Below, in pieces: positions 355-5,593 of a DNA stretch of 5,593 nt (the first letter of the stretch is position 1; each line of letters starts with the position of its first letter). The stretch lies in the NCBI GenBank assembly GCA_003056265.1, contig NBVN01000017.1, positions 1-5,593 of the forward strand. Direction: 5' to 3'. The notes beneath the pieces are model-generated. The model saw only the letters and a program-made list of their open reading frames with translations, did not search any database and was not told the origin of the DNA. A program made the translations under genes and the position numbers. The stretch comes from Zestosphaera tikiterensis (GTDB taxonomy: Archaea; Thermoproteota; Thermoprotei_A; Sulfolobales; NBVN01).

Positions 355-645
355 ATGATATACATGAGGGTAGGAACTATGGGAACCATGATTAAACCTA
401 TTAAAGTTCCGGAACGTTCTGCCTTACCGGACTACGTGGAGAAAGTCGTTCTAGAGAACGGGTTAAAAGGAGGGATGATATTCGGGATAGGAGGGTTTGA
501 AAAAGCCGAGATTGCTTTCTACAACACGCTAACTCAAAAATACGTGGTTAAGGAATACGTAAGTAAGGAAAACAAAATACTTGAAGTGCTCTCGCTTTCA
601 GGTTTCTACAACAGAAAGCGTTCTCCAGATCACGGTATTCCTTGA
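355..645 (+). pseudogene. PPC/DUF296-domain protein, 5' fragment. Native codons run 355-616; from 617 the ORF reads into inserted DNA and stops at 643-645.
   Basis: The translation MIYMRVGTMGTMIKPIKVPERSALPDYVEKVVLENGLKGGMIFGIGGFEKAEIAFYNTLTQKYVVKEYVSKENKILEVLSLSGFYNR has the GIGG...A...Y...(I/L)E(V/I)LSLSG signature of PPC (DUF296) domains. It lacks the following HxH / GGHL half. The last 10 codons (KRSPDHGIP*) are foreign. Confidence 0.8.
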
Positions 646-677
646 TATTCTTAATTACTTTTAGTTCCGTGGTCTGG
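625..677 (+). repeat. Subterminal inverted repeat / long hairpin at the left edge of the insertion.
   Basis: CCAGATCACGG (625-635) pairs with CCGTGGTCTGG (667-677). This gives 11 bp with one T-G wobble on the plus strand (C-A on the minus strand) and a 31-nt A+T-rich loop. The hairpin starts 8 nt inside the insertion boundary. Confidence 0.5.
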
Positions 678-778
678 TTCATCACGTTTCCTCTCGGGGC
701 CCCCCTCACCGCAGTAGCTCTGCTCTAGTTGCCTAGAGCTCCACAGCCCTACGGATCTCGGAACCCCGAGGTCACCAA
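678..778 (-). ncRNA. Candidate structured RNA 'A' of unknown family inside the 235-bp module. Strand is uncertain.
   Basis: This is a G+C-rich island in A+T-rich context. A perfect 7-bp hairpin GCTCTAG/CTAGAGC (722-728 / 733-739) has a loop that reads GCAA (GNRA) on the minus strand. A second hairpin is CTCGG-AACC-CCGAG (757-770). The minus strand carries a GUGAUGA motif (reverse complement of 680-686). The minus-strand start region AACTTATAAATGTATTGG resembles that of RNA 'B'. Counter-evidence: the 754-773 hairpin extends with a T-G wobble only on the plus strand. Confidence 0.3.
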
Positions 779-844
779 TACATTTATAAGTTTAAAAGTT
801 TCAAGTAATTAAGACCTATTCACAATATCTTAGGGTTTCAATAC

Positions 845-851
845 CTTAGAA
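845..851 (+). repeat. CTTAGAA heptamer abutting the IS left end. It is a candidate target/TAM-type motif and is identical to the IS terminal heptamer at 2322-2328.
   Basis: The 7-nt identity is exact. Copy one sits 4 nt upstream of the left subterminal hairpin. Copy two forms the last 7 nt of the insertion, 13 nt after the right subterminal hairpin. Confidence 0.5.
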
Positions 852-855
852 ACAG

Positions 856-875
856 CCTCGTCTTTTGTGGTGGGG
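856..875 (+). repeat. Left-end subterminal hairpin of the IS; also the first part of a repeated promoter module.
   Basis: CCTCGTC (856-862) pairs with GGTGGGG (869-875), giving 7 bp including 3 G-T pairs, with loop TTTTGT. The same arms recur at 2288-2308 and, on the minus strand, at 2647-2666. Confidence 0.55.
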
Positions 876-880
876 AAGGG

Positions 881-888
881 TTTATAAG
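881..888 (+). promoter_or_regulatory. TATA box (TTTATAAG) of the IS-internal promoter. The predicted transcription start is at about G911.
   Basis: TTTATAAG is followed by exactly 22 A+T-rich nt and then the run GGGGCTGG at 911. This matches archaeal TATA-to-start spacing. The same box and the same 22-nt spacing recur on the minus strand at 2640-2633. Confidence 0.5.
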
Positions 889-910
889 TTTTGCGTATTT
901 ATTGTTTTTA

Positions 911-1019
911 GGGGCTGGTTGTGGAGGGCGATCCTCAAGCGGTGGGTGAGGGTTGTGGTTTAGAGGGTGTGTCATGCCATACCTCCCTATCTTCCCTATG
1001 CCCTCCACGGCTGGTTCCC
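911..1019 (+). ncRNA. Structured 5' leader / left-end RNA hairpin of the IS, overlapping the first 33 codons of the tnpB ORF as called in the ORF track.
   Basis: GGGGCTGGTTGTGGAGGGC (911-929) pairs with GCCCTCCACGGCTGGTTCC (1000-1018). The stem is 19 contiguous bp, 6 of them G-U, so it is stable only as plus-strand RNA. An internal hairpin GGGTGTG (965-971) / CATACCT (978-984) has 2 G-U pairs. The 5' arm is G/T-rich and the 3' arm is C/T-rich. Confidence 0.5.
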
Positions 1020-2300
1020 AAATGTAGGAGGGTTAGTGTCGTTAGACTAGTACTAGATAATGAATCTGAAGTAAGGTTAAAGGCCCTATGTAGCTTAACA
1101 TCTAAGCTGTGGAATGAAGTAAACTACGTTAGGAGACGTCAATTCTTCAAAGGAAAAGGAGTTGATTTAAAGGAAACATATAGAGAGTTCTACGAGAAGT
1201 ATAAATCGTTGATAGGTTCTGTGACAGCTCAGCAAGTACTTAATAAGAATGGTGAAGCATGGAGATCGTTCTTCAGCCTACTGAAAGCTAAGAAAGAAGG
1301 AAAGCTACCACCATACATAGCAAAAGTCAACCCACCCGGATATAAAAAGAGAGGGAAAGCTAGAGAGTTATGGGTTGTGTTGAGAAACGATCAGTATAGG
1401 ATTGAAGGAAATAAGATAGTTCTGAAGGGACTGGGAGCCGTAGGGAGGATAGAGATGAAGTACAGAGGGTTAATCCACTTAAAGGGTAAGCAGGGCAGGA
1501 TTGAAATACATTACGATGCCGACTCTAAGAAATGGTATGCATACATATCATTCGAAGTTTATGAGAAAGCTGTTAGAGGTGTGTGGAGGAAGGTTCCTCA
1601 GGCTCCCAAAGGCGATTTGAGGGCTGGAGTGGATATTGGTGTGAATAATTTATTCGCAGTATACGTTGAGAACGGGACATCGCTACTTATTAACGGCAGA
1701 CCGCTTAAAGCTATATCCCACTACTGGAGGGAGAGGATCGCTAAATATCAAAACATTATTAACAAGTATGGTATTAAGTCTTCACGAAAGCTTAGGCTAA
1801 TGTACAGTAAGTGGCGTAGGGAGGTGAAAAGCTTCATAAACACACAAATTAGAAGACTCGTTGAGCGACTCTACGGGAGTGGAGTTTCAGTAATTTACGT
1901 TGGCTACCCGAAGAACATCGCCCAGGAGAGCGGAAACTTCAACACTGTTCAGGTGTGGAGCTACGGATACCTGTTGAGGAGATTAAACGAAGTTAGTGAA
2001 GAATATGGGGTAGCGGTATTATTCGTTGATGAATCCTACACATCTACAACATGCTCAATACACGGCGATAGTTGCGGAAAAAGAATAACGAGAGGACTAT
2101 TTAAATGTACGAAACTGAACAAAGTATTCAATGCAGACATAACAGCGGCATACAACATCTTAATCAAAGGCTTAACCATAACCCCAAACCCCCTAGAAGG
2201 GGTAGGGGTAATGGGCTGGAAACCCAGCCCGGGGCTAAACGAAGCGAATGTAGCCCCAAACCTCCCCACCCTAACAACACCAAGAACCCCCACCCTTTAA
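921..2300 (+). CDS. tnpB: TnpB (IS605 OrfB-type RNA-guided RuvC nuclease). The true start codon is unresolved: in-frame GTGs lie at 921, 942 and 966, and the recognisable TnpB sequence begins at about 1026.
   Basis: The N-terminal region RRVSVVRLVLDNESEVRLKALCSLTSKLWNEVNY is typical of TnpB. RuvC-I is AGVDIGVNNLFAV, with D at 1632-1634. FVDESYTSTTCSIHGDSCGK...C is the zinc-ribbon region. RuvC-III is FNADITAAYNIL, with D at 2136-2138. The ORF is intact, with no frameshift or internal stop. Confidence 0.88.
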   Translation: MEGDPQAVGEGCGLEGVSCHTSLSSLCPPRLVPKCRRVSVVRLVLDNESEVRLKALCSLTSKLWNEVNYVRRRQFFKGKGVDLKETYREFYEKYKSLIGSVTAQQVLNKNGEAWRSFFSLLKAKKEGKLPPYIAKVNPPGYKKRGKARELWVVLRNDQYRIEGNKIVLKGLGAVGRIEMKYRGLIHLKGKQGRIEIHYDADSKKWYAYISFEVYEKAVRGVWRKVPQAPKGDLRAGVDIGVNNLFAVYVENGTSLLINGRPLKAISHYWRERIAKYQNIINKYGIKSSRKLRLMYSKWRREVKSFINTQIRRLVERLYGSGVSVIYVGYPKNIAQESGNFNTVQVWSYGYLLRRLNEVSEEYGVAVLFVDESYTSTTCSIHGDSCGKRITRGLFKCTKLNKVFNADITAAYNILIKGLTITPNPLEGVGVMGWKPSPGLNEANVAPNLPTLTTPRTPTL

Positions 2301-2348
2301 AGGCGGGGAGGAGGTCAGATGCTTAGAAGCGATGGTAGGATATTCACG
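2186..2348 (+). ncRNA. Candidate omega-RNA (right-end RNA). The scaffold overlaps the tnpB 3' end and the right end of the IS, and is followed by about 20 nt of flank-derived guide.
   Basis: G+C rises sharply over the last ~110 nt of tnpB. A three-way junction can be drawn from three elements: a closing stem 2199-2208 / 2264-2272; the hairpin GGGCTGG-AAAC-CCAGCCC (2213-2230); and the hairpin GGGGCTA-13 nt-TAGCCCC (2231-2257). The hairpin at 2288-2308 follows. The IS ends at 2328, so the guide would be GCGATGGTAGGATATTCACG (2329-2348). The placement follows the established TnpB/omega-RNA architecture. The RNA ends are not determinable from sequence. Confidence 0.55.
2288..2308 (+). repeat. Right-end subterminal hairpin of the IS. 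The tnpB stop codon lies in its loop.
   Basis: CCCCACC (2288-2294) pairs with GGCGGGG (2302-2308), with one A-C mismatch on the plus strand that becomes G-U on the minus strand. The loop is CTTTAAA. The arms match the left-end hairpin at 856-875. Confidence 0.55.
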
Positions 2349-2471
2349 CATATCCACGTAGTTTTAGGCTTAGATCATGACGTCTTATGTGGTGGTCATT
2401 TAATAAGAGGTTTTGTAAAACCTCAGGTTGAGGCCTTCCTCGTGGAGGTTGCTGACGGCTCTCCGCCATGA
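2329..2471 (+). pseudogene. PPC/DUF296-domain protein, 3' fragment.
   Basis: In frame with the 5' fragment once 617-2328 is removed, it reads (S)DGRIFTHIHVVLGLDHDVLCGGHLIRGFVKPQVEAFLVEVADGSPP*. This carries the HxH...GGHL half of the PPC domain. The stop TGA is at 2469-2471. Confidence 0.8.
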
Positions 2472-2610
2472 ATGGCGGAGGTTCTCCCCCTAGGGCTTCC
2501 ATCACCTTTCTGAAGCCCCTCACCGGGAGTGCATCACCCATCAGTTCCCGCCGTCAGCTCCGGGAAGGTGTGGGACTCATCCCAAGCTACGGTTACCCAC
2601 ACCCAACCCA
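2451..2610 (-). ncRNA. Candidate structured RNA 'B' of unknown family, with two K-loop/K-turn-like motifs (possible L7Ae sites).
   Basis: On the minus strand the 5' hairpin is GGGTGTGGG/CCCACACCT (2604-2596 paired with 2574-2566; 8 Watson-Crick pairs plus one G-U) with a GGG/CCC extension. A 9-bp helix GCTGACGGC/GCCGTCAGC (2558-2550 / 2459-2451) then encloses three hairpins. These are GGGA..CUGA-UGG-GUGAUG..UCCC (2549-2525), GGGCUUC-AGAAAGGUGAUG-GAAGCCC (2518-2493) and CUCCGCCA-UUCA-UGGCGGAG (2480-2461). The start is predicted from TATA 2640-2633 plus 22 nt. The 3' end is undefined, but a hairpin plus T-run at 2424-2403 is possible. Confidence 0.45.
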
Positions 2611-2632
2611 ATACATATTAAGTTAGAGAAAG

Positions 2633-2666
2633 CTTATAAACATTTACCCCGCCTTAAAAGACGGAG
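2633..2666 (-). promoter_or_regulatory. Hairpin plus TTTATAAG promoter module driving RNA 'B'. It is homologous to the IS left-end module at 856-888.
   Basis: The minus strand reads CTCCGTC-TTTTAA-GGCGGGG (2666-2647; 7 bp, 2 G-U), then TAAATG, then TTTATAAG (2640-2633), then 22 nt, then TGGGTTGGGTGTGG. The IS has CCTCGTC-TTTTGT-GGTGGGG, AAGGG, TTTATAAG, 22 nt, GGGGCTGGTTGTGG. Confidence 0.5.
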
Positions 2667-2761
2667 CCTCAATGATTGGTGAGGTTCTTAAGCAGGAGTT
2701 TAAGCATAGGGACGTAAAGACGTGAGTGTGGAAAGCCTTACTCGTCGATGGGGTCGTGTTT

Positions 2762-4179: not shown

Positions 4180-5593
4180 ATGCGTTTCTACCTCTTAGAC
4201 GTTAGTTATGAAGTTGAGGGTAACGTACCAGTAATTCTCATGTGGGGTTTAAAAGAGGACTCAACCCCTATCTTAATTAAGGATAATACCTTCAGACCTT
4301 ACTTCTACGCCTTAGTTGAGGATGAGAAGGCATTACCTGAAGTGAGGAAGAGGGTTAAGGCTTTAAGCAGGCCTTCCTCCCCCATACTTGAAGTCGTTGA
4401 AGTCGATAGGAAATACTTCGGTAAGCCGGTGAAAGCTTTAAAAATAACTACTTTAATCCCTGAAAGCGTAAGACATTATAGGGATGAGGTCTCTAAAATA
4501 CCTGGAGTTAAGGAAGTTTTAGAAGCGGATATTAGGTTCTCCATGAGGTACGTAATAGATAGGGACGCCCTCCCATGCGGTTGGTACGAAGCTGAGGTTG
4601 AGGTTTTAAGTAGGGATGCCAGGTATAGAGTTCCTGAGGTCTATCTTTTAAAGAGTGGTTTAAGAAGGATTGAGAGGAACCTACCACCGAAGCTTAAGGT
4701 TTTAGCGTTTGACATAGAGGTTTACAGCCCTTCAGGGTCTTTAAGGCCTTCTAAAGACCCTATAATCATAGTGGCGTTAGCCAACAACGACGGGGACGTT
4801 AAAGTACTTACCGCTGAGGATTTAAACAACGATGGAAAACTTATTGAGGAATTCGTTAATTACGTGTTGACTTACGACCCAGACATCATAGTAGGCTATA
4901 ACTCAAACATGTTTGACTGGCAATACCTACTCAGCAGGTCTGAATTCCTGAAGGTTAAGCTAGATGTTGGCAGAGCTAAGGGCGGCATCCCAAGACAGTC
5001 GGCTTACGGGCATATATCAGTTCCTGGGAGGCTTCACGTAGACCTCTACAACTTCGCCGAGGAAATACCTGAGATTAAGCTAAAGTCCTTAGATGAGGTA
5101 GCCGATTACCTAGGGGTTATGAAGAAAGATGAACGCACTTTAATACCTTGGTATGAAATACATAAGTTCTGGGACGACTTAAGTAAGAGACCCTTACTTG
5201 AGAAATACGCTAAGGAAGACGCGATATCCACGTTAGGCTTAGCTGAGAAGTTCCTACCCTTCGCTATGCAGTTATCAAGCCTTACAGGACTGCCTTTAGA
5301 TCAGGTAGGGGCTGCTTCAGTCGGTTACAGACTTGAGTGGTATTTAATGCGTGAAGCCTTTAAATACGGTGAGCTCATACCGAATAGGGTTGAGAGGGAG
5401 TACGAACCCTACAAAGGAGCTATAGTTTTAGAGCCTGCTAAAGGCGTTCATGAAAATATAGCGGTGTTGGACTTCACCTCAATGTACCCTAACATCATGA
5501 TTAAATATAACATAGGTCCTGACACATACGTTGACGGCGAATGCGGTGTTAACGAATGCTACATCATACCAGAGCTGAAGTATAAGTTTAGAG
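4180..5593 (+). CDS. polB: Family B DNA polymerase, N-terminal 471 codons. The gene continues past the right window edge.
   Basis: The frame is open from ATG 4180 to the window end. The N-terminus MRFYLLDVSYEVEGNVPVILMWG...FRPYFYALV matches family B polymerases. Exo I is LAFDIEV, Exo II is IVGYNSNMFDWQYL, Exo III is YAKEDAISTLGL, and polymerase motif A is VLDFTSMYPNIM. The short N-terminus resembles PolB3 / euryarchaeal PolB more than the crenarchaeal PolB1 type (tentative). A TATA-like ATATTT at 4151-4156 sits about 27 nt upstream of the ATG, which suggests a leaderless mRNA. The ORF is absent from the track because it has no stop in the window. Confidence 0.9.
   Translation, partial: MRFYLLDVSYEVEGNVPVILMWGLKEDSTPILIKDNTFRPYFYALVEDEKALPEVRKRVKALSRPSSPILEVVEVDRKYFGKPVKALKITTLIPESVRHYRDEVSKIPGVKEVLEADIRFSMRYVIDRDALPCGWYEAEVEVLSRDARYRVPEVYLLKSGLRRIERNLPPKLKVLAFDIEVYSPSGSLRPSKDPIIIVALANNDGDVKVLTAEDLNNDGKLIEEFVNYVLTYDPDIIVGYNSNMFDWQYLLSRSEFLKVKLDVGRAKGGIPRQSAYGHISVPGRLHVDLYNFAEEIPEIKLKSLDEVADYLGVMKKDERTLIPWYEIHKFWDDLSKRPLLEKYAKEDAISTLGLAEKFLPFAMQLSSLTGLPLDQVGAASVGYRLEWYLMREAFKYGELIPNRVEREYEPYKGAIVLEPAKGVHENIAVLDFTSMYPNIMIKYNIGPDTYVDGECGVNECYIIPELKYKFR

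Follow-up and report, generated by a model that had tools for sequence, protein, structure and literature searches.

The window analysed here is a 5,593-nt stretch of Zestosphaera tikiterensis contig NBVN01000017.1, archaeal by its A/T-rich TATA-type boxes, a family-B DNA polymerase and a tnpB gene of the IS1341 type. Its positions are used throughout, strands are given relative to it, and L-numbers denote loci fetched for comparison. An earlier sequence-only reading had noticed that a module of hairpin, TATA box and RNA start at the left end of an insertion sequence (IS) recurs outside that IS, in the opposite orientation and ahead of a different RNA-like sequence, RNA B. Comparison with orthologous loci supports this observation and places the second copy within a 227-nt insertion, element 2 (2452-2678, minus strand). 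We consider it likely that element 2 belongs to the IS200/IS605 family as a complete, non-autonomous element inserted recently, namely a palindrome-associated transposable element (PATE), and that its left-end promoter drives RNA B as an omega-RNA-like guide.

The disrupted PCC gene and element 2

The orthologous loci were fetched through protein matches and not through the motif. L007 is a sister strain whose flanks are 98% identical to the window, and L008 and L009 represent a sister species at about 84% nucleotide identity. The gene order in L008/L009 is a KaiC-like ATPase, an intact 134-aa PCC gene, an FAD amine oxidase 34 nt further on, and PolB; neither the IS nor RNA genes were found among these four genes. 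In L007 the IS is the sole insertion. By blastn the window corresponds to the empty locus of L008 plus three insertions, arranged as listed here (a slash inside a sequence marks an insertion joint).

355 to 609, plus strand: 5' part of the host PCC/DUF296 gene, broken by the IS (Pfam PCC match; blastn match to the intact 134-aa gene in L008)
606 to 609, plus strand: CTAC, target/cleavage tetranucleotide of the IS; TTAC in the empty site of the sister species (TTTTTAC/ATGCTT)
610 to 2318, plus strand: the IS, inserted after (T/C)TAC and ending GGAGGTCAG/
619 to 855, minus strand: element 3, 237 nt, inserted in the left end of the IS, with AACAGAAAG on one side and the hairpin on the other; not present in the IS copies of L007, L003 and L005
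2319 to 2451, plus strand: middle piece of the PCC gene, between the right ends of the IS and element 2 (86% identical to L008 9784-9920)
2452 to 2678, minus strand: element 2, 227 nt, holding the second module and RNA B; absent from L007 and L008

The three odd 'promoter modules' of the window are accounted for by the ends of three mobile elements piled up in one broken host gene. For element 2, blastn found 2456-2675 missing from both L007 and L008. The empty site is contiguous (GTGGAGGTTG/GTGAGGTTC in L007), and, with CAA standing at both joints, the boundary can be placed to within 3 nt. Because this is one insertion into a contiguous site, the module and RNA B arrived together and are not host sequence. 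On its own strand element 2 reads TCAC, CAATCAT-TGAGG, CTCCGTCTTTTAAGGCGGGG, TAAATG, TTTATAAG, 22 nt and an RNA of about 160 nt; its 3' part reads GAAC, CTCCGCCATTCATGGCGGAG, AGCCGTCAG and then the flank CAACCTCC. The left-end features are the following.

2679 to 2682, minus strand: TCAC, target/cleavage tetranucleotide, equivalent to a target-adjacent motif (TAM), adjoining the left end; present ahead of the window, L130a, L131 and L132 copies
2647 to 2666, minus strand: left palindrome CTCCGTCTTTTAAGGCGGGG, the hairpin of the sequence-only reading, preceded by a variable linker and TGAGG (2667-2678)
2633 to 2640, minus strand: TATA box TTTATAAG, with a predicted start at about 2612-2609; an A/T-rich octamer occupies the same place in motif-independent copies

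The left palindrome is identical at 19 of 20 positions to the left-end hairpin of L128 and is kept in L131. The right palindrome (2480-2461, minus strand, CTCCGCCATTCATGGCGGAG) folds as single-stranded DNA at -9.4 kcal/mol, and the two palindromes are alike on the same strand (CTCCGTC..GGCGGGG and CTCCGCC..GGCGGAG). GAAC lies 5' of the foot of the right palindrome and the element ends 9 nt 3' of the palindrome with TCAG as its last bases. Neither inverted terminal repeats nor a target duplication were seen at the ends or in the empty sites of L007 and L008. All ORFs (open reading frames) of element 2 are spurious, 65 aa or less, and pairing of TCAC with TGAG or GAGG is complementary only in part. 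Subterminal imperfect palindromes on the same strand and insertion 3' of a tetranucleotide without duplication are characters of the IS200/IS605 family, and a strain-specific, multicopy insertion of this kind falls under the published definition of a PATE (PMC3119063).

Relatives of element 2 were found by a protein-database search with a spurious 52-aa ORF inside it, which returned six equally spurious ORFs. Five more copies, 83-91% identical and in unrelated flanks, come from hot-spring metagenomes (two in L130, then L131, L132 and L133/L134), and a distant relative, L063, aligns across the 3' 100 nt and ends CGCTAG. All element-2 copies end ...(G/C)CAG, followed by C. TCAC stands ahead of all four copies (4/4) that have the element-2 type of left end, namely L131, L132, L130a and the window, and is followed in each by a variable linker of 7-8 nt and TGAGG. 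This linker differs in every copy (CAATCAT, TCCATATC, CACATGCT and CTCTTACC) against 83-91% identity elsewhere, and at least part of it lies within the inserted DNA. At 5-10 nt past the left palindrome there is an A/T-rich octamer, which precedes the 5' hairpin of the RNA by 22 +/- 1 nt, in motif-independent copies as well (TTTATAAG in L131, TTTTTAAG in L132 and L133, TTTGTAAG in L130a and TTTATAAT in L063). Element 2 is one insertion unit with IS200/IS605 ends, polymorphic and multicopy, sharing the left-end module of the IS group.

The ends of these copies are not uniform. L133 carries a canonical left end, TTAC/AACCGAAAG-CCTCGCC, on the same RNA body, so that one body is seen with two left-end types, TCAC with TGAGG and CTCCG.. 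in L131/L132 and TTAC with GAAAG and CCTCGCC.. in L133 (331-560). The same body also occurs with two right palindromes, CTCCGCC..GGCGGAG and CCCCT..AGGGG. Such mixed ends on one RNA body suggest recombination between elements and possible retargeting.

The shared left-end module, the neighbouring IS and element 3

Direct counting exactly reproduced the agreement reported between 856-924 (plus strand) and the reverse complement of 2597-2666: 15/20 hairpin positions, all 8 of the TATA box (TTTATAAG) and 11/14 of the bases that follow. Both spacers are 22 nt long, yet only 8/22 of their positions are identical. The best inter-strand Smith-Waterman match of the region is 859-924 against 2663-2597, with a score of 35; dinucleotide shuffles gave 16.1 +/- 2.4 and none of 1000 reached the score (z about 8). 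A repeat finder listed the pair independently (I2, I12), and TTTATAAG occurs three times in the window where 0.36 would be expected on both strands. The similarity is real and non-random, and reflects the common descent of two transposon left ends, while the 22-nt spacing reflects archaeal TATA-to-start geometry. The 11/14 match joins G-rich starts and may be partly due to chance. Past this 14-mer the sequences are not significantly alike, in line with the earlier claim of divergence (301/500 shuffles score as well), and the idea that the 5' part of RNA B is an IS leader was rejected (301/500 and 66/500 shuffles were as good).

The hairpins themselves needed reinterpretation. Both had been said to fold with G-U pairs on the transcribed strand. 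The one at 2647-2666 does fold as single-stranded DNA, at -3.7 kcal/mol on the element strand against -1.3 on the other, whereas the IS hairpin at 856-875, with three G.T pairs, is unfolded as single-stranded DNA (0 kcal/mol). Both lie upstream of the adjacent TATA box and so are not transcribed from it. They are not promoter parts but subterminal imperfect palindromes of the kind recognised by IS200/IS605 transposases.

The pattern proposed by the sequence-only reading was run, in reverse-complement form, over metagenomes and returned at least 120 loci, which are a sample and not a census; the matches listed include neither the window's contig nor L007. About half of them are bacterial terminator-like hairpins followed by T-rich DNA. 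About 58 of the matches listed are from hot-spring archaea and have the common form (T/C/A)TTAC/AACTGAAAG-CCTCGCCCTTYAGGGCGGGG-ATGGNGN-TTTATAAG, with about 40 left ends reading TTAC/AACTGAAAG-CCTCGCC; the TTAC target and AAAG guide are those of IS608. Downstream of the archaeal module three arrangements were found. In the first it precedes tnpA and tnpB (L077, L086, L113; the motif-independent locus L009 of the sister species is alike). In the second it precedes tnpB alone, in at least three lineages. The third comprises at least 16 gene-less elements of 193-318 nt in which the promoter is followed by a short RNA, the right palindrome and AGGAGGTCAG/, with 3' flanks that differ from one element to the next. 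The longer ones (L013, L035) keep the last tnpB codons and match sot0042 with 44 bits (E 1e-8) and HgcC with 42.8 bits (E 6e-7); with these codons and matches, they are deletion derivatives that kept the omega-RNA. In a representative-genome collection a stricter form of the pattern gave only two matches, both due to chance, one in a cyanobacterium and one in a Desulfovibrio. A large crenarchaeal group of IS200/IS605 elements has this hairpin and TATA box as its standard left end, and the suggestion of a portable promoter/RNA-start cassette shared by the IS family and small non-coding elements came close to the truth.

These data bear on two other origins for the second module. It could be a solo left end that an IS left behind, a relic with a promoter now serving host or other non-IS sequence, and it is true that likeness to the neighbouring IS is confined to the left-end module, the downstream parts not being significantly alike. 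This origin is contradicted by the empty sites of L007 and L008, where module and downstream RNA are absent together as a 227-nt unit, by the right palindrome and TCAG with which the downstream part ends, like the IS right end, and by the recurrence of the whole unit at five other loci; we regard it as very improbable. Equally hard to credit is a generic host promoter or terminator-promoter ahead of many unrelated genes, for the bare degenerate pattern is indeed unspecific, about half of its listed matches being terminator-like, but the archaeal-type matches listed all bear TTAC/AACTGAAAG followed by tnpA, tnpB or a right end, none of them stands ahead of an unrelated host gene, and all three copies of TTTATAAG in the window lie in insertions missing from the sister species.

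Two of the scanned loci deserve mention. In the L030 mini-element (module at 4247, oriented copy) ATGCTTAAG takes the place of the usual 9 nt AACTGAAAG after TTAC. The identical 9 nt stand just past the right end of this element, so that hairpin...GGTCAG seems to be framed by a 9-nt direct repeat, and TTAC-ATGCTTAAG is similar to the window IS target CTAC-ATGCTTAGAAG. L115 (1215-1480) has a canonical left end, about 30 nt, and then a right end in reverse complement (GAGCTGACCTCCTCCCCGCCCTTTAGGGCGAGG), the opposite strand giving an HgcC-like match; it is another pile-up of elements.

The neighbouring IS had been taken to begin at 856. Its actual start is 610, and the foreign element 3 is nested in its left end.

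610 to 618, plus strand: first 9 nt of the IS, AACAGAAAG, the last four of which, AAAG, are the guide tetranucleotide by the IS608 rule (PMC3201880); uninterrupted in L007 as TAC/AACAGAAAG-CCTCGTC
856 to 875, plus strand: left subterminal imperfect palindrome (IPL) CCTCGTCTTTTGTGGTGGGG, a decayed copy; homology with IS copies begins 9 nt ahead of it
881 to 888, plus strand: TATA box TTTATAAG with a predicted start at about 911; kept in IS copies retrieved by protein (TTTATAAG in L003, TTTATAAT in L005)
911 to 1031, plus strand: conserved leader, 88-94% identical between IS copies
1032 to 2300, plus strand: tnpB of the IS1341 type, 'ISDka2 orfB'-like (Pfam OrfB_IS605 and Cas12f1-like_TNB; RuvC motifs GVDIG, VDESYTS and NADITAAYN)
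2203 to 2318, plus strand: right end, including a region like an omega-RNA (GAAC, then the right palindrome at 2288-2308 and 10 nt ending TCAG at 2318)

The IPL stem covaries among IS copies (CCTCGCC with GGCGGGG in L003, CCTCGCTA with TGGTAGGG in L005). The AAAG guide, which normally abuts the left hairpin, is cut off from it in the window by the nested element. Because the palindrome is decayed and element 3 separates it from the AAAG guide and the CTAC/TTAC cleavage site, this IS copy is probably immobile for the transposase TnpA. The start at about 911 would follow from archaeal promoter geometry. Substitutions in the leader are evenly spread over codon positions and those in tnpB are strongly biased to the third position. 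The region 911-1031 is thus probably a conserved non-coding leader and not an N-terminal extension called from GTG 921; GTG 921 was rejected as the true tnpB start, as 921-1031 has no codon-position bias. No canonical in-frame start codon was found near the conserved TnpB N-terminus (about 1032). The tnpB gene appears intact; its product is 96% identical to a protein from a Zestosphaera tikiterensis metagenome-assembled genome, the closest named relative, and matches solved TnpB/Cas12f structures. Homology between IS copies ends at GGAGGTCAG/, the right end reading GAAC-CCCCACCCTTTAAAGGCGGGG-AGGAGGTCAG with 10 nt in the last part. It matches HgcC weakly (21.6 bits) and covariance model R1 at 11.4 bits (E 0.018), and an 85%-identical IS copy, L006, matches sot0042 with E 0.003. 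We also observed 94% identity between the window IS (854-2318) and that of L007 (1140-2606), against 98% in the flanks; another IS copy may have replaced or converted the one at this site, or a metagenome repeat may have been assembled chimerically.

Element 3 is unrelated to the IS and precisely adjoins the foot of its left palindrome. The minus strand of the element encodes a structured RNA some 170-190 nt long (about 612-782), with homologues in L047 (3166-3336), L084 (342-513), L097 (3516-3689) and L130 (494-653), found by nhmmer with E from 1e-9 to 1e-54. RNAalifold gave 32 pairs, 4 of them with compensatory changes, three in one hairpin; the RNA ends ...GAGAA(A)CG(G/C) and has no Rfam match. 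The element also contains the third TTTATAAG (783-790) and the hairpin 754-773, which the earlier reading had noted together, the box lying 9 nt past the hairpin. They are not a third copy of the module; the hairpin is the first stem, on the opposite strand, of the conserved RNA of the nested element. In L084, TTTATAAG lies 22 nt upstream of the TGGTGACC start of this RNA, a spacing that has collapsed in the window copy. The position of element 3 recalls the Haloquadratum SMR-A repeats, which target near-terminal palindromes of IS605-type elements.

The RNA B scaffold

The predicted parts of RNA B are as follows.

2452 to 2612, minus strand: scaffold of about 160 nt (minimum free energy -83.7 kcal/mol, z -2.84; better than shuffles)
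2562 to 2609, minus strand: 5' hairpin of the predicted fold
2550 to 2558, minus strand: GCTGACGGC, pairing with GCCGTCAGC (2451-2459) in the closing helix of the predicted fold, which covaries in L063 (CTTAGCG with CGCTAG)
Within the scaffold, minus strand: inner hairpin of the predicted fold, GGGGCTTC with GAAGCCCC
2481 to 2484, minus strand: GAAC, followed by the right palindrome (2461-2480) and 9 nt ending TCAG at the boundary

The scaffold is structured, oriented toward the right boundary and ends there, and its helices are retained across 7 family members (RNAalifold). In the predicted fold a long-range helix, GCUGACGGC with GCCGUCAGC, closes the body. The 3' end is paired in this fold to a CTGAC box further upstream, in the manner of canonical mini-elements (CTGACC with GGTCAG), with compensating changes in element 2 and L063. 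The counterpart of the closing helix in the canonical mini-elements is CTGACC(A)CC with GGAGGTCAG, and an adjacent helix, CCCCCC with GGGGGG, shows compensatory changes. Published TnpB omega-RNA structures likewise contain a helix by which the scaffold's 3' end is joined to a box further upstream. From this architecture RNA B would work like an omega-RNA, and we assign it to neither HgcC nor sot. HgcC had no match in L130-L133, and sot0042 (RF02656, gathering threshold 88 bits) had none in element 2 (E up to 1, window) or in L130-L133 (E up to 0.1).

Several other assignments were rejected. Membership in the RNA family of the canonical mini-elements was dropped, because the model of that family did not find RNA B; its match to the 3' end of the IS is weak as well. 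RNA A and RNA B have CGGTGAGGGG, CCGTAG and GTGATG in common order, but 195/500 shuffles were as good. Signal recognition particle RNA, RNase P and tRNA gave no Rfam or ARAGORN matches, and two scans of viral contigs for RNA B motifs returned nothing. In the loop of the inner hairpin (2488-2521, minus strand, GGGGCUUC-AGAAAGGUGAUG-GAAGCCCC), CAGA...GGUGAUGG is kept in all family members and in L063, and a similar CGUGAUGA occurs in the element-3 RNA. This loop resembles a K-loop of the box C'/D' type, a possible L7Ae site.

Proposed mechanism and relation to known elements

Transposition of element 2 as single-stranded DNA would be carried out by the Y1 transposase TnpA of an autonomous relative, using both hairpins and the guide and cleavage tetranucleotides as in IS608. 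The left-end promoter, which would normally serve a tnpA/tnpB mRNA, would in element 2 directly drive RNA B, firing at about 2610. The transcript would read through the right end into the flank (CAACCTCCACGAGG...), a T4 tract at 2420-2417 lying 31 nt beyond, and be trimmed to a guide whose 3' extension is copied from the flank. A TnpB encoded elsewhere could then use RNA B to cut the TCAC-flanked empty site, restoring the element. Each of these steps has support in the literature for related systems (PMC10055086, PMC4615843, PMC3119063, PMC3201880). It is most likely that the left-end promoter drives an omega-RNA-like guide that a TnpB would use in trans. An apparently intact tnpB stands 150 nt from element 2; as its own right-end RNA differs, the window TnpB may not be the partner of RNA B. 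With 133 bp between them (2319-2451), the IS and element 2 face each other tail to tail, both within the already broken PCC gene, and their read-through transcripts would converge and be complementary across that interval. By the TnpB/omega-RNA paradigm, the PCC middle piece would supply both guides, that of the IS from 2319 rightwards and that of element 2 from 2451 leftwards (CAACCTCCACGAGGAAGG).

The strongest competing explanation, which we think unlikely, is that element 2 is a PATE that is selfish DNA only, its TATA box a vestige of the parent IS and RNA B functionless or not made, with conservation due to recent descent and to the needs of single-stranded DNA transposition. Several observations weigh for it, against our own reading, or both. 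Double or compensatory changes affect 4/38 pairs of RNA B, a thin covariation because the copies are young, and among copies 83-91% identical conservation proves little. The TATA box is altered in L132 and L133 and degraded in L130a (TTTGTAAG), and both promoter and starts are predicted ones. A left end is missing from L130b, and the variable linker is unexpected under simple copy-and-paste descent. No tnpA was seen in the window. The RNA B family has no Rfam match, and no known omega-RNA model recognises it: HgcC (RF00062, gathering threshold 50) gave 19.0 bits and E 0.41 at 2567-2444 (minus strand), and a covariance model from eight canonical mini-elements gave a partial match of 6.3 bits. 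A profile of the family run against about 1 Mb of related DNA found the family and L063 only, with no tnpB-linked relative, and similarity of RNA B to the IS 3' region is marginal (10/500 shuffles score as well). On the other hand, L063 keeps the 3' 100 nt and, with compensating changes, an 8-bp long-range closing helix that an IS608-type DNA mechanism does not need. The same design of left-end promoter, scaffold and 3' end paired to an upstream box occurs in canonical mini-elements that match sot0042/HgcC, and PATE RNAs are transcribed in Halobacterium (PMC4615843).

An omega-RNA-bearing PATE in this place would agree with what is known of such elements. PATEs are IS605-type derivatives with fused ends (PMC3119063) that are transcribed in Halobacterium (PMC4615843) and 'often encode omega-RNAs' acted on by TnpB in trans (PMC10055086). 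The comparators are Haloquadratum walsbyi HqIRS, the Halobacterium salinarum PATE RNA VNG_R0052 (PMC3119063, PMC4615843) and PATE-like elements of Geobacillus stearothermophilus (PMC10055086). Like them, element 2 is too short for a transposase, has no inverted terminal repeats or target duplication, is a strain-specific insertion, carries near-terminal palindromes related to those of IS605-type transposons and holds an RNA proposed for use by TnpB in trans; a heterogeneous terminal stretch beyond the palindrome is also found in haloarchaeal PATEs (PMC3119063). It differs in its host, a hyperthermophilic, Desulfurococcales-like crenarchaeon, and in an RNA body that matches no described family. 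It also has an explicit left-end TATA box at a fixed 22 nt from the predicted RNA start, whereas no BRE-TATA (TFB recognition element and TATA box) was found for haloarchaeal sense overlapping transcripts (sotRNAs; PMC4615843).

In IS608 the palindromes are subterminal on the active strand, the right cleavage falls 10 nt 3' of the right palindrome and the guide tetranucleotides lie 5' of the palindrome feet (PMC3201880). Element 2 and its relatives likewise have the target tetranucleotide outside the element, 5' of the left end, and hairpins that would function on one strand only. Canonical relatives are identical to IS608 in the TTAC target, with the AAAG guide at the foot of the left palindrome, and agree with it in a predicted right cleavage at 10 nt, which is 9 nt in element 2. 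The distance from the predicted cleavage site to the left palindrome is 9-12 nt here against 19 nt in IS608, and the predicted right cleavage is at TCAG with GAAC where IS608 has TCAA. Unlike IS608, element 2 would use TCAC with (T)GAGG, an assignment made from sequence. The neighbouring IS (610-2318) is of the ISDka2-like IS1341 group, named from the homologue P0051 of Vulcanisaeta moutnovskia; element 2 has the left-end module and the right-end terminal motif in common with it, but no tnpB and no significantly similar internal sequence. RNA B resembles HgcC (RF00062) and sot0042 (RF02656) in its right-end position, in predicted transcription toward the boundary and in a terminal hairpin followed by about 10 nt ending ...GUCAG, after which the flank would be the guide. 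It differs from them in having its own predicted promoter and in not being embedded in a tnpB 3' end, and canonical mini-elements of the same IS group match both families significantly where RNA B does not.

A wider proposal, which we put forward tentatively, is that RNA B and, independently, the element-3 RNA are founders of undescribed guide-RNA-like families on promoter-equipped, protein-less elements of hyperthermophilic Crenarchaeota. They might act as 'guide-only' transposons, making use of both TnpA and TnpB in trans, with a target specificity that could be reset by left-end swapping, an idea that arises because the same RNA body is seen with TCAC/TGAGG and TTAC/AAAG left ends.

The three-element reading corrects the boundary of the IS. 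It does not overturn current understanding, as PATEs and omega-RNAs are already known from haloarchaea and Geobacillus; its interest lies in the promoter-to-guide-RNA arrangement in Crenarchaeota, in two RNA bodies unknown to Rfam and in a hint of exchange, between elements, of left-end types and with them of target sites. Loss of the ORF would put the right-end RNA directly under the left-end TATA promoter, which may be how gene-less IS200/IS605 derivatives express their RNA. With defined ends, TTAC and TCAC as TAM-like sites and compact scaffolds about 160 nt long, crenarchaeal mini-elements are candidate sources of thermostable TnpB guide RNAs.

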